Notes: a model not told the origin generated them from the sequence alone. 64,000 bases of DNA from Escherichia coli 042 (GCF_000027125.1 NC_017626.1), one strand, 5' to 3'; positions 27,020 to 37,835 are shown, counted from the first letter of the stretch. Numbers and translations are program-made.

Positions 27020-27124
27020 CAATGCGTGCAATATCGGCAAAGTGATGATAGATTGTGCAGTCTGCAGTAAATTGAAGAAATTTGATTGACGAGACGAGGC
27101 GAATCAGGTTTAATGCGCCCCGTT

Positions 27125-27200
27125 GCCCGGATAGCTCAGTCGGTAGAGCAGGGGATTGAAAATCCCCGTGTCCTTGGTTCGATTCCGAGTCCGGGCACCA
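27125..27200 (+). tRNA. pheV: tRNA-Phe (anticodon GAA)
   Basis: GCCCGGATAGCTCAGTCGGTAGAGCAGGGGATTGAAAATCCCCGTGTCCTTGGTTCGATTCCGAGTCCGGGCACCA; 76 nt, CCA end, GAA anticodon in loop. Confidence 0.95.
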
Positions 27201-27209
27201 AATTCATAT

Positions 27210-27238
27210 AAACGGACCTCCACGGAGGTCCGTTTTTC
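27210..27238 (+). terminator. hairpin terminator after pheV
   Basis: aaacggacctcc-acg-gaggtccgttttt. Confidence 0.5.
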
Positions 27239-27397
27239 GTTTCAGGACACCACAATTTAAGCGTTCTGCCTAAAAATCATTTCTACCGAACTCAACCAGA
27301 TTCCCCCCACATCAACCTCATTGTGTGGGTATAATTGCGGGTATACCCCAGTTCGACAGAATTTGTACCCTCTTTAACGCATTCAGAAGGCTGAACT

Positions 27398-28663
27398 ATG
27401 GCACTGACTGACGCAAAAATCCGGGCAGCAAAGCCTACTGACAAGGCTTATAAACTCACTGACGGGGCTGGCATGTTCCTGCTGGTACATCCTAATGGTT
27501 CCCGTTACTGGCGTCTCCGTTATCGTATTCTGGGTAAGGAGAAGACTCTGGCACTTGGTGTGTATCCAGAAGTTTCTCTCTCCGAAGCTCGTACAAAACG
27601 GGATGAGGCCCGAAAACTGATTTCAGAGGGGATTGACCCTTGCGAACAGAAAAGAGTTAAAAAAGTAGTCCCTGATTTACAGCTCTCTTTTGAACATATT
27701 GCACGACGCTGGCATGCCAGTAATAAACAATGGGCACAATCACACAGCGATAAAGTACTCAAAAGCCTCGAGACACACGTTTTCCCCTTTATCGGCAACC
27801 GGGATATCACAACACTCAATACCCCGGACCTGCTTATCCCTGTTCGTGCTGCAGAAGCAAAACAAATTTATGAAATCGCCAGTCGTCTGCAGCAAAGAAT
27901 ATCTGCTGTAATGCGTTACGCCGTACAGTCTGGCATCATCAGATATAACCCGGCTCTGGATATGGCTGGTGCATTGACCACGGTAAAACGCCAGCATCGC
28001 CCCGCTCTGAATCTTTCACGCCTGCCTGAACTTCTGTCGCGTATTGACGGTTATAAAGGCCAGCCTGTCACCCGGCTTGCCGTTATGCTGAATTTACTGG
28101 TTTTTATTCGTTCCAGTGAACTCAGATATGCCCGCTGGTCTGAAATTGATATTGACAATGCCATGTGGACTATTCCAGCCGAACGCGAACCTCTGCCTGG
28201 CGTAAAATTCTCACACCGGGGCTCCAAGATGCGGACACCACATCTTGTGCCACTCAGTAAACAGGCTGTAGCCATACTGACAGAACTTCAGACATGGGCA
28301 GGTGAAAATGGTCTGATATTTACGGGTGCACATGACCCGCGTAAACCAATCAGTGAAAATACTGTAAATAAAGCCCTGAGGGTGATGGGGTATGACACAA
28401 CCCGGGATGTCTGTGGTCATGGGTTCCGGGCGATGGCATGTAGTGCGTTAATAGAATCAGGTTTGTGGTCCCGCGATGCTGTTGAACGTCAGATGAGCCA
28501 TCAGGAACGTAACGGTGTACGTGCTGCTTACATTCATAAAGCAGAACATCTGGAAGAACGCCGCTTGATGCTACAATGGTGGGCCGATTTTCTGGATGCA
28601 AACAGAGAAAGATTTATCAGTCCATTTGAATATGCAAAGATTAATAATCCATTAAAACAGTAA
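27398..28663 (+). CDS. P4-type tyrosine integrase (site-specific recombinase)
   Basis: 421-aa ORF starting 200 bp after tRNA-Phe; N-terminal MALTDAKIRAAKPTDKAYKLTDGAGMFLLVHPNGSRYWRLRYR and C-terminal HGFRAMACSA...RAAYIH catalytic region typical of P4-like integrases. Confidence 0.9.
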   Translation: MALTDAKIRAAKPTDKAYKLTDGAGMFLLVHPNGSRYWRLRYRILGKEKTLALGVYPEVSLSEARTKRDEARKLISEGIDPCEQKRVKKVVPDLQLSFEHIARRWHASNKQWAQSHSDKVLKSLETHVFPFIGNRDITTLNTPDLLIPVRAAEAKQIYEIASRLQQRISAVMRYAVQSGIIRYNPALDMAGALTTVKRQHRPALNLSRLPELLSRIDGYKGQPVTRLAVMLNLLVFIRSSELRYARWSEIDIDNAMWTIPAEREPLPGVKFSHRGSKMRTPHLVPLSKQAVAILTELQTWAGENGLIFTGAHDPRKPISENTVNKALRVMGYDTTRDVCGHGFRAMACSALIESGLWSRDAVERQMSHQERNGVRAAYIHKAEHLEERRLMLQWWADFLDANRERFISPFEYAKINNPLKQ

Positions 28664-28981
28664 TCATCCCGGGCAAATGCCCGGGAACTTACTCCATGAA
28701 TATTTTCTTTGTTAAAAAGACAAAATGGTATTAACTGATGTATTTACTGTTTACCTGATTGTTCCCTGGAGGAGGATTATCAGAATCTGCGGTTATTCAT
28801 TATTTATATTCAATGAAAAAGTAACCTCATAAAAAAACTCACTCACAGAGTGATGCGGGATAACTGACGTAAGGAATACTGCCGGGATTTGGTGGTCCCT
28901 TGTGCTGATATGAATACGGATTCTGTTTTATACAGAATACTTTTCAGTACAAGCAACTGTATTACAGTTTGCCATATATGA

Positions 28982-30481
28982 TTACCTGTGGTCCGGAAGA
29001 ATAAGCGGCTGCGGTTTCAGACTGTCTTCCTGTACATACCTCTCTCCGTTAAAAACCATAATGCGTTCATTATCTTCGTCTGTCAGTGGATTGAATGGCG
29101 GTATATTTTCGGTACGAATACCGGTCAGCCACTGAAAAATACCTGTGAAATGACGGGCACTGATTTTTCTGCTGAGGGACTGATGAGAGGTTATATCACT
29201 GGCGGTAATAATCAGGGGCACGCTGTAGCCTCCCTGCACATGACCATCATGATGAACAGGATTAGCACTGTCGCTGACCGACAGCCCATGGTCAGAAAAG
29301 TAAAGCATGGCGAAATGACGTGAGTGTCGGCGAAGGATACCATCAAGCTGACCAAGAAAGTTATCCAGTTTACTGATGCTGGCAAGATAACAGGCAATTT
29401 TTCGGGAATACTGCTCCAGGTAATTATTCTGCCAGGAGTGAAGCCGATCACACGGGTTCGGATGAGACCCCATCATGTGCAGGAAAATCACCTTCGGAGT
29501 GGATGTATCTGCCAGCGCACGTTCTGTTTCCTGTAACAACAACATGTCATCCGTTTTACGGGAAGCAAAGCTGCCTTTCTTGAGGAAAACAGTATGGTCC
29601 GCATCAGAAGCAATAACAGAGATGCGTGTGTCATGCTCTCCCAGTTTTCCCTGATTGGATATCCACCATGTGCTGTATCCTGCTTTTGCTGCCAGCGCCA
29701 CCACGTTGTTGCCGGAATCAGGGTTCTGCTCATAGTCATAAATCAGTGTCCGGCTCAGGGAAGGCACGGTGCTGGCTGCTGCCGATGTATAACCGTCAAT
29801 AAATAAACCGGGAGCCGTATTCAGCCATGGTGTGGTTGGCTCGGGATAACCATATACCGACATATAATCCCTGCGGACACTCTCACCAGTAACAATAACA
29901 ATCGTGTCATATAATGGTGCTCCCGGCAGGATTTTCCAGCTGTCAGCACCGTGCCGACTCAGTTGTTCATAACGCTGCATTTCACGCAATGTGTCAGTTG
30001 TCCCCACAACTGTTCCTTTAACCATCCGTAACGGCCAGCTGTTTACAGAGCATAATACGAATAACAACAGAGCCATCGCGTTACGTTGACCACGGTGGTG
30101 TGTCCGCCAGAAAATAACCATGAACACCAGAATCGCGGCACTGACCAGAAAATGATAAACAGGAATCATCCCGGTAAACTCCGCAGCCTCATCCGCCGTG
30201 GTCTGCAACAACGCGACAATAAAACTGTTGTTGATTTTTCCGTACGTCATACCGACAGGTGCATACAGTGCACAACAGAACAGAAATAACAGAGCTGTAA
30301 TGGATGTAAGGGTATTTCTGTGTGCAAGAATCAGAAGGAGAAACAGCAGCAACACATTCCCGGTGGCATTCTTCTCAGTGTATCCGCATGCGGCAGTGGT
30401 TATTACACACATGCCCGGGAAGAATAAAAACAATAAAATCCGGGATATATTGTCCGTATAAAACAGCTTTCTGATATTCAT
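28982..30481 (-). CDS. membrane phosphoethanolamine transferase / sulfatase-family protein (EptA/YhbX-like)
   Basis: 499 aa; N-terminal multi-TM region followed by alkaline-phosphatase-superfamily motifs (TGESVRRDY, HMMGSHP, SDHG). Confidence 0.6.
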   Translation of the reverse strand: MNIRKLFYTDNISRILLFLFFPGMCVITTAACGYTEKNATGNVLLLFLLLILAHRNTLTSITALLFLFCCALYAPVGMTYGKINNSFIVALLQTTADEAAEFTGMIPVYHFLVSAAILVFMVIFWRTHHRGQRNAMALLLFVLCSVNSWPLRMVKGTVVGTTDTLREMQRYEQLSRHGADSWKILPGAPLYDTIVIVTGESVRRDYMSVYGYPEPTTPWLNTAPGLFIDGYTSAAASTVPSLSRTLIYDYEQNPDSGNNVVALAAKAGYSTWWISNQGKLGEHDTRISVIASDADHTVFLKKGSFASRKTDDMLLLQETERALADTSTPKVIFLHMMGSHPNPCDRLHSWQNNYLEQYSRKIACYLASISKLDNFLGQLDGILRRHSRHFAMLYFSDHGLSVSDSANPVHHDGHVQGGYSVPLIITASDITSHQSLSRKISARHFTGIFQWLTGIRTENIPPFNPLTDEDNERIMVFNGERYVQEDSLKPQPLILPDHR

Positions 30482-30632
30482 CGGAGTATATCGACAACAT
30501 TATTGTGAAGAGAATAAAAATCAGAAGTCTCCTGTGAAACAGATAACAGACAACCCTGCAGTATAATTACTGCAGGGAGTCTTCGTTTAATTACAGAAGA
30601 TGGGTAATTATTATCTTTCAGGAGCAGTTTTG

Positions 30633-31373
30633 TCAGAAGTTATAAGTCACACCAAGCATGATGTCATGACTTTTAACATCAACTTCTGATTTATATTTAT
30701 CGCCCCACTCGTCCTTGTAACTCACACTGCTGTCACCTGCATCAAGATAGCGATAGCTGAGGTCCAGAGCGATATCCGGGGTTACGTCATAGCGGACACC
30801 CGCGCCAAAGCTCCATGCGAAGTTGTCAGCAGAGCCTGAACGTGACAACGATTCGCGACCACTGCTTCCGTACCCATAATCCCAGGTACTGATACCGGTT
30901 GTTTTCTGGTGAATTCTGGCGTAGCCAATCCCTGCAGATACCCATGGTGTGAATGCACTGTCATTCCGGAAGTCATAGTACGCATTCAGCATCAGTGTGT
31001 TGACTGACACCTCATTCTTCAGGTCATCACGCCAGTAACCGCCTGACCAGCTGTCTTTATCTACGTTATACTTCGAATCAGCTTTTCCACGAGCGTAAAA
31101 CTCCAGTTCCGTACGAACCGGAATACTGAACTGCGGGTAAAAATCATAACCGGCCGCGATACCGCCACTGAATACCGTATCATGGCCATCACCGCCTTTA
31201 TATTTTGATGTTTCCTCTCCATCACCCGACAGGAAACGCTGGTCTGCAAGTGACATAACAGAAGCACCTGCTTTACCGGTCACATAAAAGCCTGTTTTGC
31301 TCTCATCAGCCAGAGCCTGGGTCGAAAACATGCCTGCCATGGCAAGCGCTGAAACCGCAATAACCTTATTCAT
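30633..31373 (-). CDS. outer-membrane beta-barrel protein (possibly opacity/Tia-Hek-like adhesin family)
   Basis: Signal peptide MNKVIAVSALAMAGMFSTQALA, alternating aromatic/hydrophilic strands, C-terminal ...LGVTYNF beta-barrel signature; subfamily uncertain. Confidence 0.55.
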   Translation of the reverse strand: MNKVIAVSALAMAGMFSTQALADESKTGFYVTGKAGASVMSLADQRFLSGDGEETSKYKGGDGHDTVFSGGIAAGYDFYPQFSIPVRTELEFYARGKADSKYNVDKDSWSGGYWRDDLKNEVSVNTLMLNAYYDFRNDSAFTPWVSAGIGYARIHQKTTGISTWDYGYGSSGRESLSRSGSADNFAWSFGAGVRYDVTPDIALDLSYRYLDAGDSSVSYKDEWGDKYKSEVDVKSHDIMLGVTYNF

Positions 31374-31597
31374 TTCAATCATCTCCGCTATCACTTTCCC
31401 CGAACGATAAATGGGGTTGCTCATTCTAAAACCATGCAAAAGATAGGGTAAAAGGAATGTTTTCGATCGAATCGATCGATAAAATCGATCGTACCCGATA
31501 AAGTTTTCTTATCGTACCCATAAAAATGGTAAGGGCTGGTTTAAGAGGTAATCGCAGCGGCATGGAAGTATTAAGACCAAAACAGCACGAGATAAAG

Positions 31598-31781
31598 CGG
31601 CTGAACGTCAGATGAGCCACATGGAACGTAATTCATTAAGGGCGGCTTATATCCATAAAACAGAACACCTGGAATAGCGTCGGTTGATGCTACAGTGGTG
31701 GGGGGATTTTCTGGATACAAACTCGAAAGAAAATACCAGCCCCTTTGAGTATACGAAGATTAACAATCCATTAAAATATTA
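31598..31781 (+). pseudogene. integrase 3' end remnant (duplicated C-terminal fragment of P4-type integrase)
   Basis: Nucleotide stretch ctgaacgtcagatgagcca...ttgatgctacagtggtgg...attttctggata...aatccattaaaa is clearly homologous to 28481..28663 (end of the intact integrase) but carries an in-frame TAG; followed by a similar ccgggca-loop-tgcccgg hairpin. Confidence 0.7.
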
Positions 31782-32010
31782 AGCACTCCGGGCAATCTGC
31801 CCGGAGTGCTTTAGCTGGCATAACGGGCTACTGATCTCCTCTGGTTACAGATAACGACTTCAGCCCTCTGAAAGAGAAAAGCGGAAGCTCAGGAAGGTTG
31901 TGATTTGCTTTTAACCTTTTTAATTTAGAAGTATTATTTTGAGATTAATCCACTTCCCATCGTCATCCTTTTTGGTGTGCGTGAAAAGCTATTTTTAAGG
32001 TTACTGCCTC

Positions 32011-34320
32011 ATGGAGTTATGGATATTTATAGTAGCTATTTATTTGATTTATATTCTTTTTTTCAAAAAGAAGAAAACTAAGTCCGCGGGCTCTTATACT
32101 TCCGCTCCTGTGAAAGCACCACCTAAAGAATGGCTTGCTAACAACAAAAAAAATCAGTCTGTAATGCAAAACGAGGACAGCGAAGATGACAATCTGGCTA
32201 CGTTTACACTAAGTGGCGGGCGGAATGTCGAATACAGCATAACAGCCACTCAACGCCAGAATTTCTCAAAAACTACCGGTGCTTTGGCTCGTTGGATTTT
32301 TCCGGGAGAGATGATCACAGTCAGTGGGATAGAGGTTACCGGCGGTCACTTCTATCTTGGGCAGCGTATGAAACCTGCCGGGCATAACTCAGGCGGTTAT
32401 TATGATGGCAATAACGAGGCATCGCTAGTTGACGACACGCTTAAAATATACCCCACACCTTACATTTACGAAGATAGTTCATTAGGGTATTGGCCCAGTT
32501 TTTCCTCACTTTCACCTGAAGCTCGTGGTGCGTACCTGAGTTGGCTTGCCAGCGACAGATGCGACACTTCCTGCCCAATTGGTTACGTTTTCATTTATCT
32601 GTATGGTCTGGAAAGAAGGGCGCTTGTTGACAGCAGGGACAACAATATATCCGACGATGAGTTCTATTCTCTTTTCAAAGAGATCTGCCGTCTCAGATCG
32701 GTTTTCAATGAAAACCGATCTTTCCGGAATTACTCATCCCAGTTACTTGAAGCGATGTCCATTCTTCGTCCGAACGAAAATCTTGCAGCAGCTCTCAACG
32801 ATGATTCGGAGTTCAGCAATAGCATGCAGTTCAGGTTAATCCTGGCAAAGACTGTTGATACAGGAGCCCCGGTTCCAGCGGATCTGGCTCTGACGTGGGT
32901 GACAAACCATGCTGAATACTCATTACGAACCCCCGCCCGCCGCTGTGCGAAAGAATTTGCTGCACTATTTAAACGGCGTTACACCCTTAAATACGGTGAA
33001 GGGATGGTAGTGAAGCCGAATAAAGCGCGTCTGCGTTTAGATTACACGCCTGCAAGTCCCAGTTTGCGAGGTATTCGGCTTCCTGTTCCCGACTTGCCTG
33101 ATCCAGGTGCATTGAAAGGCCCTGTTCAGAAGCTTATGGCCATTGCCGATATATGCACAGGTGAACTGGATGCTTACAGTCGTTACCTTGGTAGAAAAGG
33201 TACTTCAGCAAATGATACCGCTGCAATTTTGTTGCTGCCTTCAGAAATCGTTAACGAAAGCGCAGAAAAAATATTAAGTACATTCAAACACTGGGCTGAT
33301 GACGCAATCCGCAGTAAGGGTGGGATAGTTTCAGTTGCTGACTACTGGTCACATATGAATGCCACCTGTCCGGCGAAGATCAATAAAAAAGAGGCCGACT
33401 TAATGCAAGCCTTTGCACAGAAAATGGGATACTGTCTGGCTCCTGACCCCTATCACCACCACGTAAAGGCAGATGTCGATGGTGTACTTGTTTTATTCCC
33501 TGCTGGTGAAAGAGGACGTTTCTCACCTTCTCCTGAATTTATCACAGCTGTATTGACGCTCCGATTAGGTTCGGTAGTCGCCTTGATTGACAATTCTCTC
33601 GATCAAGCCGAACAGAAAGTGCTTGAGAATGCCATCAACAACAATGCCAGCTTCAGCGATGATGAAAAGCGCTCTCTGCACGCATATTTAACGTGGCAGC
33701 TTCATACTCCGGCGAATATGACGGGAATGAAAAGCCGGATTGAATTACTCGGTGCAGCGGAAAAATCAGCTGTGGGTAAGGTTATCGTTAGTGTCGCTTG
33801 CTCTGACGGCAGAATTACGCCTGCCGAAATCAAACAGCTTGAGAAGATTTATACAAGCCTGGGACTGGATCCCTCATCCGTATCAAGCAATATCCATCAG
33901 CATTCCGCAACTGAAACTGCTCTCGTTTCATCTGTACCAGCTAATCAGTCGACGGCAGGGTTTACGCTGGATGCCAACGTACTTGCCCGCCACGAATCTG
34001 CCACTGATGATGTTCGTAAATTACTGAACTCAATTTTCACTGAAGAAGAACCAGAACAACCAGAAAGCGCTCCAGCCTCATTAACCGGGGAAGGGGGACT
34101 TGACTCCGCTCATAGCCAACTTTATCGCAGGTTGCTGGAGAAAGAACAATGGTCCAGAAAAGAGGCGACAGAGTTGTGTAGTAACTGGAACCTGATGCTC
34201 GGCGGTGCGCTTGAGGTGATTAACGATTGGTCCTATGCGGTGGTTGATGCACCAGTGCTGGAAGATGCTGATGATCACATTTGGATTGACCTGGAAATAG
34301 CCAAAGAATTAGAGGGTTAG
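32011..34320 (+). CDS. TerB-domain membrane-anchored protein (Shango SngA-like)
   Basis: 769 aa; N-terminal TM helix (MELWIFIVAIYLIYILFF), region with GYVFIYLYGLERR and a later ...VSVACSDGRITPAEIKQLEKIYTSLGLD block that I recognise as TerB-N / TerB-like; first gene of a tightly packed three-gene operon. Confidence 0.6.
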   Translation: MELWIFIVAIYLIYILFFKKKKTKSAGSYTSAPVKAPPKEWLANNKKNQSVMQNEDSEDDNLATFTLSGGRNVEYSITATQRQNFSKTTGALARWIFPGEMITVSGIEVTGGHFYLGQRMKPAGHNSGGYYDGNNEASLVDDTLKIYPTPYIYEDSSLGYWPSFSSLSPEARGAYLSWLASDRCDTSCPIGYVFIYLYGLERRALVDSRDNNISDDEFYSLFKEICRLRSVFNENRSFRNYSSQLLEAMSILRPNENLAAALNDDSEFSNSMQFRLILAKTVDTGAPVPADLALTWVTNHAEYSLRTPARRCAKEFAALFKRRYTLKYGEGMVVKPNKARLRLDYTPASPSLRGIRLPVPDLPDPGALKGPVQKLMAIADICTGELDAYSRYLGRKGTSANDTAAILLLPSEIVNESAEKILSTFKHWADDAIRSKGGIVSVADYWSHMNATCPAKINKKEADLMQAFAQKMGYCLAPDPYHHHVKADVDGVLVLFPAGERGRFSPSPEFITAVLTLRLGSVVALIDNSLDQAEQKVLENAINNNASFSDDEKRSLHAYLTWQLHTPANMTGMKSRIELLGAAEKSAVGKVIVSVACSDGRITPAEIKQLEKIYTSLGLDPSSVSSNIHQHSATETALVSSVPANQSTAGFTLDANVLARHESATDDVRKLLNSIFTEEEPEQPESAPASLTGEGGLDSAHSQLYRRLLEKEQWSRKEATELCSNWNLMLGGALEVINDWSYAVVDAPVLEDADDHIWIDLEIAKELEG

Positions 34321-34323
34321 TGA

Positions 34324-35640
34324 ATGTCTGTAACACGTATAAGAGTGAAAGAGCGCGACGCTATCATTCAGTCACTTAAGTCGGGAGTAACGCCAAGAAT
34401 AGGTATTCAGCATATCCAGGTTGGCCGCGTGAATGAGATAACCGCCCTCCATCAGGATATTGAACGGATTGCTGATGGCGGGGCAAGCTTCAGACTTATC
34501 ATTGGTGAGTACGGTTCCGGGAAAACATTCTTTTTAAGTGTTGTACGGTCTATTGCGTTAGAGAAGAAGCTGGTCACGGTCAGTGCAGACCTTTCTCCCG
34601 ACAGACGTATCCACTCATCGGGAGGTCAGGCTCGTAATCTCTACTCAGAGCTTATGAAAAATATGTCCACCAGAAACAAACCAGATGGCAATGCATTACT
34701 TAGCGTTGTGGAAAGGTTTGTTACTGAGGCAAGGAAGGAAGCTGATGCGAACGGCTCCCTGGTCTCATCCGTTATTCATAAACGCCTTGCTGCTTTGTCA
34801 GATATGGTGGGAGGATATGACTTTGCGAAGGTCATTGACGCATTCTGGCGCGGGCATGAGCAGGATAACGAAACCTTAAAATCCAATGCTATTCGCTGGT
34901 TGCGGGGCGAGTACACCACAAAAACTGATGCCCGTAATGATCTTGACGTCCGAACGATTATCTCAGACGCCTCGTTCTATGATTCTTTGAAGTTGATGAG
35001 CCTTTTTGTCCGTCAGGCAGGCTATGCCGGACTTTTAGTTAGCCTCGACGAGATGGTGAACCTCTTCAAGTTGAATAATACGCAAGCGAGAACGGCCAAC
35101 TACGAACAAATTTTGCGGATTCTGAATGACTGCCTGCAAGGCTCCGCCGAAAATATTGGTTTTATCCTCGGGGGGACGCCAGAATTTCTTTTCGATCCAC
35201 GTAAGGGGCTCTACAGCTATGAAGCGCTCCAGTCGCGTCTGGCAGAAAACCGATTCGCACAGAAAGCTGGCGTGATTGACTACTCGTCCCCCACGCTGCA
35301 TCTTGCCAGCCTCACTCCTGAGGAACTGTATATTTTACTGAAAAACCTTCGTCATGTTTATGCTGGTGGAGATCCCGTAAATTATCTGGTGCCAGATGAT
35401 GCTCTGACCGGGTTTCTGCATCACTGCAGCAAAACCATCGGAGATGCTTACTTTCGAACTCCCCGCAATACCATAAAAGGTTTTCTGGATATGCTGGCTG
35501 TGCTGGAACAAAACAGAACGATGAACTGGCAACCCCTCATTGAGGGGGTGGCGATTGAAGAAGACAAGCTCAGCGATATGGATGATGCCATTGTGGAGGA
35601 AAGTGATGACGATGATGGCCTGGCGAATTTCAGATTATGA
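34324..35640 (+). CDS. P-loop ATPase (Shango SngB-like)
   Basis: 438 aa; Walker A GEYGSGKTF, Walker B LLVSLDEM; starts 4 nt after upstream stop and overlaps downstream start. Confidence 0.65.
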   Translation: MSVTRIRVKERDAIIQSLKSGVTPRIGIQHIQVGRVNEITALHQDIERIADGGASFRLIIGEYGSGKTFFLSVVRSIALEKKLVTVSADLSPDRRIHSSGGQARNLYSELMKNMSTRNKPDGNALLSVVERFVTEARKEADANGSLVSSVIHKRLAALSDMVGGYDFAKVIDAFWRGHEQDNETLKSNAIRWLRGEYTTKTDARNDLDVRTIISDASFYDSLKLMSLFVRQAGYAGLLVSLDEMVNLFKLNNTQARTANYEQILRILNDCLQGSAENIGFILGGTPEFLFDPRKGLYSYEALQSRLAENRFAQKAGVIDYSSPTLHLASLTPEELYILLKNLRHVYAGGDPVNYLVPDDALTGFLHHCSKTIGDAYFRTPRNTIKGFLDMLAVLEQNRTMNWQPLIEGVAIEEDKLSDMDDAIVEESDDDDGLANFRL

Positions 35641-37835
35641 GTAGTGCCTACAATAGTCTTGATCCCCGTGTCCGTAAGTGGGTTTATAAGCAGGGCTGGT
35701 CATCCTTAAGGCCCTTGCAGGAAAGCTCTATTCCGGCAATTTTAGCCCGTGATCGTGATGTACTAATTAGTGCAGGTACAGCTGCGGGTAAAACAGAGGC
35801 TTTCTTTCTTCCTGCCTGTTCAGCGATTGCAGATCTCACTGGTGGATTTGGCATTATCTATATCAGTCCATTGAAGGCATTAATTAACGATCAACACCGT
35901 CGTCTTGAGAGTCTTGGTGAAGCCCTGGAAATGCAAGTGACGCCCTGGCACGGGGATGTACCACAAAGCAAAAAGAAGAAAGCACGGACAACCCCTTCTG
36001 GCATCTTACTTATCACACCTGAATCACTTGAGTCTTTGCTCATAAACTCATTGGGTTGGCTCAAACAGGCGTTTTCTTCTGTGGCATACATTGTTATTGA
36101 TGAGTTCCATGCTTTTATTGGCTCAGAGCGTGGTATACAGCTGCTTTCTCTGCTTAACAGAATTGACCATGTGCTGGGACGCCAGTTGAATCCAGTTCCC
36201 CGTGTCGCGTTGAGTGCCACACTGGGAGAGCTGGAAAAAGTACCAGAACTATTGCGCCCGGATAAGAGATTACCTTGTGAAACGGTAACAGACAGTAATA
36301 GCAAAGCCACAATACAGGTTCAGGTTAAAGGTTATCTTGAGCGGGTGCCCGAAAAAGGAAAAGAGCTCCAGAGCTCTGCTGAACAGCTCGTCTGCGCGGA
36401 TATTTTCAGGCTCTGCCGTGGCGATTCCCACCTAGTCTTTGCTAACAGTCGAAAGCGTACTGAAAGCATAGCGGCAACACTGAGCGACATGTGTGAAGCA
36501 AATGTCGTTCCTAATGAATTCTTTCCTCATCATGGTTCCCTTGCAAGGGAGTTGCGTGAGGCGCTTGAAGCCCGACTGCAGAAAGGGAATTTGCCCACAA
36601 CCGCTGTTTGTACAATGACTCTGGAGCTGGGTATTGATATTGGTAAGGTGCAGTCTGTCATACAAGTGACACCTCCGCATTCTGTTTCCAGTCTGCGTCA
36701 ACGCATGGGACGTTCAGGGCGGCGCGATTCCCCATCGGTGCTGAGAATGTTAATTACTGAACCTGAACTTACCGCAACCAGCAGCATTGTGGATCATTTA
36801 CGGCTGCAGTTGGTTCAGGCGATGGCAATGATCAGGTTGATGATCTCTAAGCGCTGGTTCGAGCCTGCAGATATCCGGCAGAAACATTACTCCACACTAC
36901 TACACCAGATCTTGGCTATTACTGCGCAATGGGGAGGTGTTCGTGCCGATCAGCTCTGGTCACAACTTTGCCAGACAGGTCCGTTCCGGAATGTGGATAT
37001 AAATGACTTCAAAAGTCTGCTTAAACATATGGGGACATGTGGCCTGCTCACTCAACTAACCAGCGGTGAAATAGTTGTCGGGGCTGAGGGGGAGAAACTG
37101 ACTAATCACTACACGTTTTATACCGTATTCAATACACCTGAGGAGTTTCGCATTGTAACGGGAAACCGAACTCTTGGCACAGTGCCTGTAGACTCCCCAC
37201 TTTTGCCGGAGCAGCACATCATCTTCGGCGGACGGCGCTGGAAAGTGACAGAGATCGAGGTTGAAAAAAAGGTTATCTATGTTGAGACGACTAAAGGCGG
37301 TCAGCCGCCACTATTCAGTGGTAGCGGGATGTCTGTTCATGATGTTGTTCGCCAGGAAATGCTCACTATCTACAGGGAAAATGATTACCGTATCGCGGTA
37401 GGCAACAAGAGAGTCGATTATGCTGATGCCGCAGCCAGAAGCCTCTTCGCGGAAGGAAGTGACAACTTCCAACGCTACAATCTACAAAATGACTGTTTTA
37501 TTGCCAGTGGTCAGAACTGCTACGTGATCCCGTGGATGGGGGATAAAATTGTCAATACAATTACGTCCCTGCTTATACGTTGTGGCTTTAAAGCCAGTTC
37601 ATTTGCAGGTGTGATAGAGGTAGAGGACTCAGGCGTTGCCTCTGTCCAGCGTGCACTTAAGAAAATGCTATTGTCGGGGCTACCTTCAGAGTTTGAGCTT
37701 GCTGCAGTTGTTCCCGACAAGTATCTGGATAAATATGACGAGTATTTACCAGAGACTTTGCTTGCTAAAGGGTATGGGGCACAGGCGTATGATATAGAAG
37801 GAACGTGCATCTGGCTGCAGAAACACCTTCAGTAG
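35637..37835 (+). CDS. DEAD/DEAH-box (Lhr-like SF2) helicase (Shango SngC-like)
   Basis: 732 aa; motif I AGTAAGKTEAF, motif II VIDEFH, motif III SAT, motif VI MGRSGRR; ATGA start/stop overlap with upstream ATPase. Confidence 0.7.
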   Translation: MSSAYNSLDPRVRKWVYKQGWSSLRPLQESSIPAILARDRDVLISAGTAAGKTEAFFLPACSAIADLTGGFGIIYISPLKALINDQHRRLESLGEALEMQVTPWHGDVPQSKKKKARTTPSGILLITPESLESLLINSLGWLKQAFSSVAYIVIDEFHAFIGSERGIQLLSLLNRIDHVLGRQLNPVPRVALSATLGELEKVPELLRPDKRLPCETVTDSNSKATIQVQVKGYLERVPEKGKELQSSAEQLVCADIFRLCRGDSHLVFANSRKRTESIAATLSDMCEANVVPNEFFPHHGSLARELREALEARLQKGNLPTTAVCTMTLELGIDIGKVQSVIQVTPPHSVSSLRQRMGRSGRRDSPSVLRMLITEPELTATSSIVDHLRLQLVQAMAMIRLMISKRWFEPADIRQKHYSTLLHQILAITAQWGGVRADQLWSQLCQTGPFRNVDINDFKSLLKHMGTCGLLTQLTSGEIVVGAEGEKLTNHYTFYTVFNTPEEFRIVTGNRTLGTVPVDSPLLPEQHIIFGGRRWKVTEIEVEKKVIYVETTKGGQPPLFSGSGMSVHDVVRQEMLTIYRENDYRIAVGNKRVDYADAAARSLFAEGSDNFQRYNLQNDCFIASGQNCYVIPWMGDKIVNTITSLLIRCGFKASSFAGVIEVEDSGVASVQRALKKMLLSGLPSEFELAAVVPDKYLDKYDEYLPETLLAKGYGAQAYDIEGTCIWLQKHLQ

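Follow-up and report, generated by a model that had tools for sequence, protein, structure and literature searches.

How does the broken end of a second integrase gene come to lie inside a genomic island whose own integrase is intact? The question arises in a stretch of 64,000 nucleotides of the Escherichia coli 042 genome (NC_017626.1), here called the window, where an island at a tRNA-Phe gene starts with an intact P4-family tyrosine integrase gene, followed by a phosphoethanolamine-transferase gene (ept), an outer-membrane protein gene (omp), a copy of the last part of an integrase gene (the remnant), and genes matching the Shango defence system. The original prediction, made from the sequence of the window, described a degenerate repeat of the integrase 3' end, and proposed that a module had inserted into or recombined at that end, or that two islands had fused and the second integrase had been mostly deleted. 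We find that the second copy comes from a different integrase allele, and that its left boundary is shared by islands at four tRNA loci. The remnant is probably the tail of an integrase that once headed the cargo now downstream of it, with homologous recombination in integrase tails re-assorting the head and the cargo of such islands.

The repeat itself is real and far above chance. A gapped local alignment of 28483-28684 with 31602-31804 has 205 columns, of which 163 are identical (79.5%) and 5 include gaps, and it scores 190, compared with a mean of 19.6 (standard deviation 2.3, maximum 29) in 200 shuffles. An independent repeat search reports the same pair (D1; 28478-28676 with 31597-31795, 199 nt, 77% ungapped identity). 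The similarity extends well beyond the hairpin that follows the gene: translated in frame with the integrase, 31600-31782 matches the final 61 integrase codons in an ungapped alignment, with 46/61 residues identical, ending in a TAA stop (31780-31782) and interrupted by an in-frame TAG at 31675-31677 (codon 26). To the left of ~31600, no integrase homology was found (local score 16, shuffle mean 15.3). The remnant starts after the HGFR motif, and has no start codon, no Arm domain and few of the catalytic residues. The resident gene (27398-28663) is a full-length open reading frame (ORF) within the ~400-420 amino acids (aa) of functional P4-family integrases, with an Arm domain and a complete catalytic domain; the remnant has only the last 60 codons, with significant in-frame homology to the 3' end of the family, as in a P4-family pseudogene fragment. 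Because of the in-frame tail alignment, the premature TAG, the missing 5' part and the lack of homology left of 31600, the comparison shows 31600-31811 to be, judged by its sequence, a non-functional relic of the last 60 codons and the terminal hairpin of a second P4-family integrase gene. In the RefSeq annotation, made by the Prokaryotic Genome Annotation Pipeline (PGAP), the fragment is already entered as an integrase that is incomplete, lacks the N-terminus and has an internal stop. As the original prediction had it, ORFs and RefSeq annotation place only ept and omp, both on the opposite strand, between the copies. The features on which the argument draws are the following, where L numbers designate loci compared with the window.

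27125..27200, + strand: tRNA-Phe (pheV), attachment site of the island (ARAGORN; flanking ORFs; same flank annotated in L007, L011 and L013)
27398..28663, + strand: intact P4-family (arm-type) tyrosine integrase, 421 aa (ORF; NCBIfam NF007246, 1.4e-74; RefSeq annotation of L001)
28478..28686, + strand: repeat copy 1, the last ~62 integrase codons and hairpin 28667-28686, a "module-type" tail (alignment, repeat search, folding)
28687..28981, no strand: spacer, or "slot 1", empty in the window; holds an ept terminator-like hairpin (28839-28853, - strand) (comparison of loci)
28982..30481, - strand: ept, phosphoethanolamine-transferase gene, 499 aa, YjgX-like, with weak CptA/EptA-family matches (ORF, RefSeq, profile search)
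30633..31373, - strand: omp, Hra-family outer-membrane protein gene, 246 aa (ORF, RefSeq; 67% aa identity to annotated Tia)
31374..31599, no strand: omp upstream region, kept in every junction-bearing locus and ending at the junction; GATC at 31465, 31474 and 31487 (locus comparison)
31589..31616, + strand: 28-nt junction GAGATAAAGCGGCTGAACGTCAGATGAG, non-integrase DNA joined to integrase tail (identical at pheV, pheU, leuX, selC and in 75 metagenome contigs)
31600..31782, + strand: integrase remnant (copy 2, tail type T1), 60 codons and TAA, premature TAG at 31675-31677 (alignment, frame reading, RefSeq)
31781..31811, no strand: 14-bp-stem hairpin 3' of the remnant (folding, repeat search)
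31812..32010, no strand: spacer before sngA (comparison with Shango loci)
32011..37835, + strand: Shango, with sngA 32011-34320, sngB 34324-35640 and sngC 35637-37835 (PADLOC)

The remnant is not a duplicate of the resident tail. Its left part is closest to leuX-type integrase tails (85-87%), and its right end and hairpin are closest to the allele of the L007/L003 type, at 80% and 89% respectively, compared with 72% and 51% for the resident tail. The two hairpins of the window are different alleles, that of the remnant being the same allele found after the intact integrase of L007. Several intact integrase alleles are 80-87% identical to the remnant, and searches of E. coli genomes found no intact integrase more than ~85% identical to it. 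The differences between remnant and resident tail number 13, 8 and 20 at the first, second and third codon positions; the enrichment at third positions indicates that the two tails diverged largely as functional genes. The remnants of other loci match other intact alleles at 91-97%, as in L008, where the remnant (REM_L008) is 91% identical to an intact pheU-type allele and only 62-80% identical to other remnants. In these sequence comparisons the remnants do not group as a clade.

What the loci do have in common is the junction. The sequence GAGATAAAGCGGCTGAACGTCAGATGAG, together with ~214 nt of DNA from upstream of omp, occurs at pheV (the window), pheU (L001, L003), leuX (L002, and L006 from the O157:H7 strain 86-24) and selC (L005, with tRNA-Sec). 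L008 has the same head, consisting of a tetratricopeptide repeat (TPR) gene, ept and tia, and is grouped with the selC loci, its tRNA lying outside the sequence compared. Of 5,426 complete E. coli genomes, 1,070 (~20%) have the junction region, in up to three copies each. The exact 28-mer is also found in the 75 metagenome contigs, and has no match among the 100,044 species-representative genomes of GTDB, which gave no sign of it beyond E. coli-type sequences. Because an identical 28-mer and homologous ~214 nt upstream recur at four tRNA loci, the comparison shows that the junction arose, on this evidence, by a single truncation event that founded all of these loci. We also considered whether L011 and L012, which have ept and omp and no remnant, could be ancestors from before the junction, and rejected them: their homology to the window ends at differing points (31530 and 31492) in rearranged DNA rich in insertion sequences (IS), and they look like secondary losses of the remnant.

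Behind this one junction lie many different tails. Clustering 83 junction-bearing sequences at 95% identity yields at least 14 tail types to the right of it, and the type predicts the cargo, mostly anti-phage, almost one-to-one across the sequences compared, as in the following cases.

T1: cargo Shango, 17/17 contigs
T2 (truncated): cargo pap fimbriae, 11 contigs
T3: cargo type II restriction-modification (R-M) and three other cargos, 12 contigs
T4/T6: cargo type I R-M and an AAA ATPase, 12 contigs
T5: cargo DptFGH, 5 contigs
T9: cargo PDC-S25 (SIR2-like), 1 contig

Several types are visibly mosaic. For 116 columns, TAG included, T13 equals T1, and in the ~120 columns that follow it differs at 68. 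T11 equals T3 on the left, frameshifting indels included (116 columns, 1 mismatch), and T7 on the right, where columns 106-200 show 0 mismatches. T4 and T12 share 137 identical columns, past which they are unrelated. The crossovers sit in conserved blocks such as CAGTGGTGGGCNGATTTTCTGGAT. Because the recombinants carry the TAG and frameshift lesions, the remnants that recombined with other integrase tails were already dead.

The shared block has its left boundary, too, within an integrase tail. Up to the equivalent of ~28546, the integrase of L002, at leuX, keeps to the leuX allele seen in L010, and from ~28561 on it is essentially identical to the window through the stop, the hairpin and the spacer. 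Through ept and omp the identity remains 90-100%, and at the junction it collapses. L003 (at pheU) and L010 (at leuX) share a common, different tail, and with it the same MkoC cargo (Mokosh type II). Together, the switch in L002 and the tail and cargo shared by L003 and L010 indicate that the integrase tail travels with the DNA downstream of it and not with the tRNA-specific 5' part of the gene. Slot 1 (28687-28981) is a second variable slot, which in other loci holds either the Mokosh type II gene MkoC (1,171 aa, PADLOC E=0; L003 2381-5896, L010 4630-8145, L012 3381-6896) or a sisA-like TPR gene (L005 2340-3383, L011 8820-9863). As both slot 1 and the cargo after the remnant vary, both copies of the tail precede variable cargo.

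At leuX we find the arrangement without the module, a counterpart that the original prediction had suggested looking for. L015 consists of leuX, an intact integrase, a spacer and dptF, and its colinearity with the L002 remnant, also at leuX, runs through the stop and spacer into dptF. The alignment shows that at leuX the remnant corresponds to the tail of the integrase that headed the dptF cargo. In L016 (NZ_CP159726.1, 4902-5270), the leuX integrase gene goes straight from its first 108 nt to its last ~35 nt, and dptFGH follows immediately; by its sequence this is an independent decay route of the same cargo unit, an internal deletion distinct from the shared junction. Tandem modules occur as well, in L032, L059, L066 and L083, which read ept, omp, junction, tail, hairpin, spacer, ept. 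These are the products expected from unequal recombination between two tails, or from tandem accretion. In L032 and L059 (junction +14..+1700 aligned to window 28483-30168), the second copy of ept ends at the equivalent of 30168, the same truncation point as in the K-12-like intB-yjgX arrangement of other sequence matches (H14-H19). This hints that a KpLE2-type leuX head may have partnered in an early tandem or unequal-recombination event.

The history that best accounts for these observations, and that we think probable, is as follows. One ancestral event would have cut an integrase short at a fixed position and joined what was left to the DNA upstream of a Hra-family omp, either by fusion of tandem islands followed by deletion or by recombinational insertion. 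The unit so created would have consisted of an integrase tail with its hairpin, ept, omp, the junction, and a second integrase tail. P4-type integrase genes have a conserved 3' end, to which both ends of such a unit are homologous, and the tails could therefore exchange sequence repeatedly, by homologous recombination or gene conversion. Recombination would on the one hand graft the ept-omp block onto integrases of different tRNA specificity (pheV, pheU, leuX), and on the other swap the part of the remnant right of the crossover, and everything downstream, for the tail and cargo of other islands. In the window, a head made of the pheV integrase, ept and omp is joined via T1 to Shango. RecA-type recombination as the mechanism, and the direction of the events, are what we infer from the comparisons. 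By analogy with leuX, T1 would once have belonged to an integrase heading the Shango cargo.

Several observations weigh against this history. The weakest point is that none of the 5,426 E. coli genomes has an intact T1-tailed integrase directly upstream of Shango. In the eight other genera where Shango was found, using SngA, there is no P4-type integrase within 1-5 kb upstream of it. Homology of the window to Shango loci without a remnant starts at ~31872 in E. coli and at ~31896-31909 in the other genera, ~115 nt before sngA. The deletion product, a hybrid integrase joined to Shango, was not found in the E. coli genomes either. The two repeats of the window, 79.5% identical with short identical runs, make a poor RecA substrate. 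At selC the resident integrase and the remnant lack homology, and the block must have come to that locus by another route. Several "clean" tails begin just ~18 nt to the right of the junction, so that crossovers or conversion tracts must reach the very edge of the homology. The metagenome contigs are not phylogenetically independent samples, and the evidence is comparative throughout, with no recombination intermediates observed.

Simpler accounts have to explain the same loci. A direct repeat that brackets exactly two opposite-strand genes invites the reading, one of those in the original prediction, that ept-omp inserted into the 3' end of the resident integrase by transposition or illegitimate recombination, duplicating ~200 bp of which one copy then decayed. 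This is extremely unlikely, as the copies are only 79.5% identical and yet the module between them is 90-100% identical (0-10% different) between loci, the right end and hairpin of the remnant match the different intact allele of L007, the differences are enriched at third positions (13/8/20), and no locus was seen with a remnant near-identical to its own resident tail and sharing its private substitutions; a transposase, terminal inverted repeats and a short target duplication are absent between and around the copies. What survives of the predicted origin, in substance, is recombination at the integrase 3' end and the deletion of most of a second integrase, the copy being the tail of a different P4-family allele. 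Insertion mediated by a transposon or IS was also tried and rejected: only ept and omp lie between the repeats, the repeat is ~200 nt long at 79.5% identity, and no terminal inverted repeats bracket the module. One could instead take ept-omp for a dedicated mobile cassette, inserted site-specifically at a fixed integrase position with the junction re-created each time. The invariant position of the junction and the many different clean tails starting ~18 nt to its right would fit such a cassette, which we nonetheless consider highly improbable, given that the module codes for ept and omp only, with no recombinase or transposase, that the left switch of L002 from recipient-type to module-type sequence falls at ~28546-28561 and not at the junction-equivalent ~28478, and that crossovers within remnants map to several different conserved blocks.

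A purely local history deserves somewhat more credit, and is still unlikely. In this lineage, two integrase-bearing islands would have entered pheV in tandem, after which a deletion would have removed the end of the first island, the internal attachment (att) repeat and most of the second integrase, with nothing further happening. The geometry fits, with a truncated second integrase tail directly before separate cargo; mosaic islands are known to arise by tandem accretion, some contigs have the module in tandem, and the founding junction may have arisen in this way somewhere. It was not created in this island, given a nucleotide-identical junction and ~214 nt of upstream DNA at four tRNA loci and in ~1,070 genomes, and here the original prediction, which took the arrangement for an event in one pheV island, does not hold. 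At least 14 allele types with different cargo, clear recombinants among them, lie behind that identical junction. Allowing up to 2 mismatches, a search of the 64-kb window with the final 14-24 nt of tRNA-Phe returned only the tRNA itself, so that the internal att or tRNA 3'-end repeat of a tandem array is missing. The trace of a second integrase in the window is a 183-nt tail, and in the genomes searched a corresponding intact integrase before the same type of cargo was found for the leuX remnant, and none for the Shango cargo of the window.

The remnant might also have been kept for a function: it could act between omp and Shango as an insulator or terminator, or yield a regulatory RNA or a small peptide. 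What speaks for this idea is the hairpins. That of copy 1 (28667-28686) has an 8-bp stem and folds at -19.9 kcal/mol (z -4.6), and that of copy 2 (31781-31811) has a 14-bp stem and is very stable (-27.1 kcal/mol, z -7.3). The remnant hairpin is terminator-like on the minus strand only, the plus strand having no T-tract. The post-stop hairpin alleles differ by changes that preserve pairing, for example CAGTCCGGGC...GCCCGGACTG versus CACTCCGGGC...GCCCGGAGTG, which suggests that the hairpin structure itself may be under selection, although the plus strand has no T-tract. Divergence of the cargo typically begins directly 3' of the hairpin. For the remnant as a whole, we think a retained function has very little probability. 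An Rfam scan of 28300-32200 at E<=1 returned no match. Lesions build up in the remnants of different lineages, among them stops, frameshifts, a deletion of 12 nt, and truncation by unrelated DNA or IS1, and from some loci, such as L011 and L012, the remnant has been lost altogether. The T1 copies are 100% conserved because the whole region descends from a recent common ancestor. The remnant is best described as a probable fossil, contributing at most a hairpin and ~200 bp of homology for further exchange.

Returning to recombination between integrase tails, a more general version of it is possible, and we put it forward tentatively, on comparative grounds. The 3' tails of P4-type integrases, intact or remnant, may act as general homology adapters, by which units of tail, hairpin and cargo are grafted by RecA-type recombination onto integrases of differing tRNA specificity, and the ept-omp module, flanked by two tails, would be a cassette mobilised by recombination, able to excise, duplicate and re-insert in any related integrase without inactivating it. 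If true, this would provide a concrete mechanism for defence turnover in integrase-only islands at pheV, pheU and leuX, including the leuX hotspot described below.

Regarding the island as a whole, speC and yqgA precede the tRNA-Phe gene (27125-27200), which identifies the tRNA locus as pheV. The L001 locus, from which the integrase annotation is taken, is 100% identical to the window. It belongs to NZ_AP022298.1 (L001 and L014; strain BEC1-S17-ESBL-09), which has the same island at pheU with a dsbD-dicD flank, at 100% identity over 27107-32900 and 99.85% over 31250-64000. With the same island at pheU in that strain and at pheV in the window, both tRNA-Phe genes have served the whole element, which is at least 37 kb long. 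Shango is represented by SngA (TerB-like), SngB (ATPase) and SngC (helicase), with PADLOC E-values of 8.6e-100, 3.8e-186 and 1.2e-277 over nearly the full profile lengths; the three adjacent genes amount to a complete system, predicted to be anti-phage. The rest of the island, ~38000-64000, is by annotation via L014 a patchwork of IbrB-like and 3'-phosphoadenosine 5'-phosphosulfate (PAPS) reductase genes, a PerC-family regulator, fragments of type VI secretion system genes, a microcin H47 cluster (mchB/mchI/mchF), Inovirus Gp2-family genes, and remnants of IS30 and IS600.

The omp product is 67% identical over its full length to the protein annotated as Tia in RefSeq, comparable to the 65% reported between Hes and Tia in the paper that describes the Hra family (PMC5539235). 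From its sequence it is a predicted member of that adhesin family of ~25 kDa outer-membrane proteins (Hra1, Hra2, Hek, Hes and Tia). Upstream of the gene, three GATC (Dam) sites (31465, 31474, 31487) fall within 27 nt (31463-31490), inside a palindromic TCGATCGAATCGATCGATAAAATCGATCG motif, and all three are kept in 79 of the 82 junction-bearing loci. The cluster recalls the Dam-dependent switches by which agn43 and pap phase-vary; three GATC within 40 nt are also reached elsewhere in the 64 kb, so that the density alone is not unique.

Taken alone, the remnant is an ordinary thing, an annotated integrase pseudogene in a mosaic island. Its value is as an unusually informative marker: one invariant junction followed by many tail alleles, each with its own defence system, provides nucleotide-level breakpoints for the re-assortment of heads and cargo inside the integrase 3' end. 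For annotators, it means that the tRNA specificity of the integrase and the origin of the cargo of an island are uncoupled. Tandem accretion of integrative elements followed by deletional decay is a known course of genomic-island evolution. The window resembles it in the truncated second integrase between two cargo blocks, as do some contigs in their tandem module copies, and differs from it in having no internal att or tRNA-3' repeat, in a junction that is inherited, and in later exchange within the tail.

The island also belongs with E. coli mosaic islands described before. The LAA (Locus of Adhesion and Autoaggregation) lies at pheV with hes near the integrase (PMC5539235), and insertions at pheU, pheV and selC are reported in Shiga toxin-producing E. 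coli (PMC6174562). The same components recur in both, namely a tRNA, a P4-type integrase, an optional sisA-like gene, a YjgX-like phosphoethanolamine transferase and a Hra-family outer-membrane protein, as does the modular make-up, with blocks recurring at pheV, pheU and selC. The difference is that modules are delimited there by GC content, direct repeats and IS elements, and that neither the tail remnant nor the shared junction is described; the ORF table of the LAA has the intact integrase only, and no remnant (PMC5539235). A literature search on truncated and tandem integrases found nothing specific.

Among known defence hotspots, Hochhauser et al. 2023 (PMC10121019) list leuX as #37 of 41, with "integrase-only" islands whose mode of mobilisation "could not be readily determined". 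The leuX relatives L002, L006 and L015 lie in that hotspot, with DptFGH and Mokosh as cargo, and share with it highly variable defence cargo beside a tRNA-specific arm-type integrase. L002, L006, L015 and L016 are at yjgR/ahr-leuX, and the window is outside the hotspot, at pheV (speC-yqgA-tRNA-Phe); the present analysis differs also in mapping breakpoints inside the integrase 3' tail and the tail remnant. It thereby bears on the gap stated in that study, the means by which integrase-only hotspots such as leuX #37 exchange their defence systems (PMC10121019). We also considered whether the island is a P4-like phage satellite. None of psu, cos, sid/delta or alpha is annotated in the 33 kb downstream, according to the annotation of the RefSeq record 99.85% identical to 31250-64000, and on that annotation basis satellite identity was rejected. 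In P4 satellites, Rousset et al. 2022 (PMC9122126) describe a defence hotspot between psu and int, and speculate that homologous recombination is involved on at least one side. The likeness is that a P4-family integrase adjoins a cassette-like, highly variable anti-phage set; the difference is that here the variable region begins immediately 3' of the integrase stop and hairpin, with another variable slot behind the integrase-tail pseudogene.

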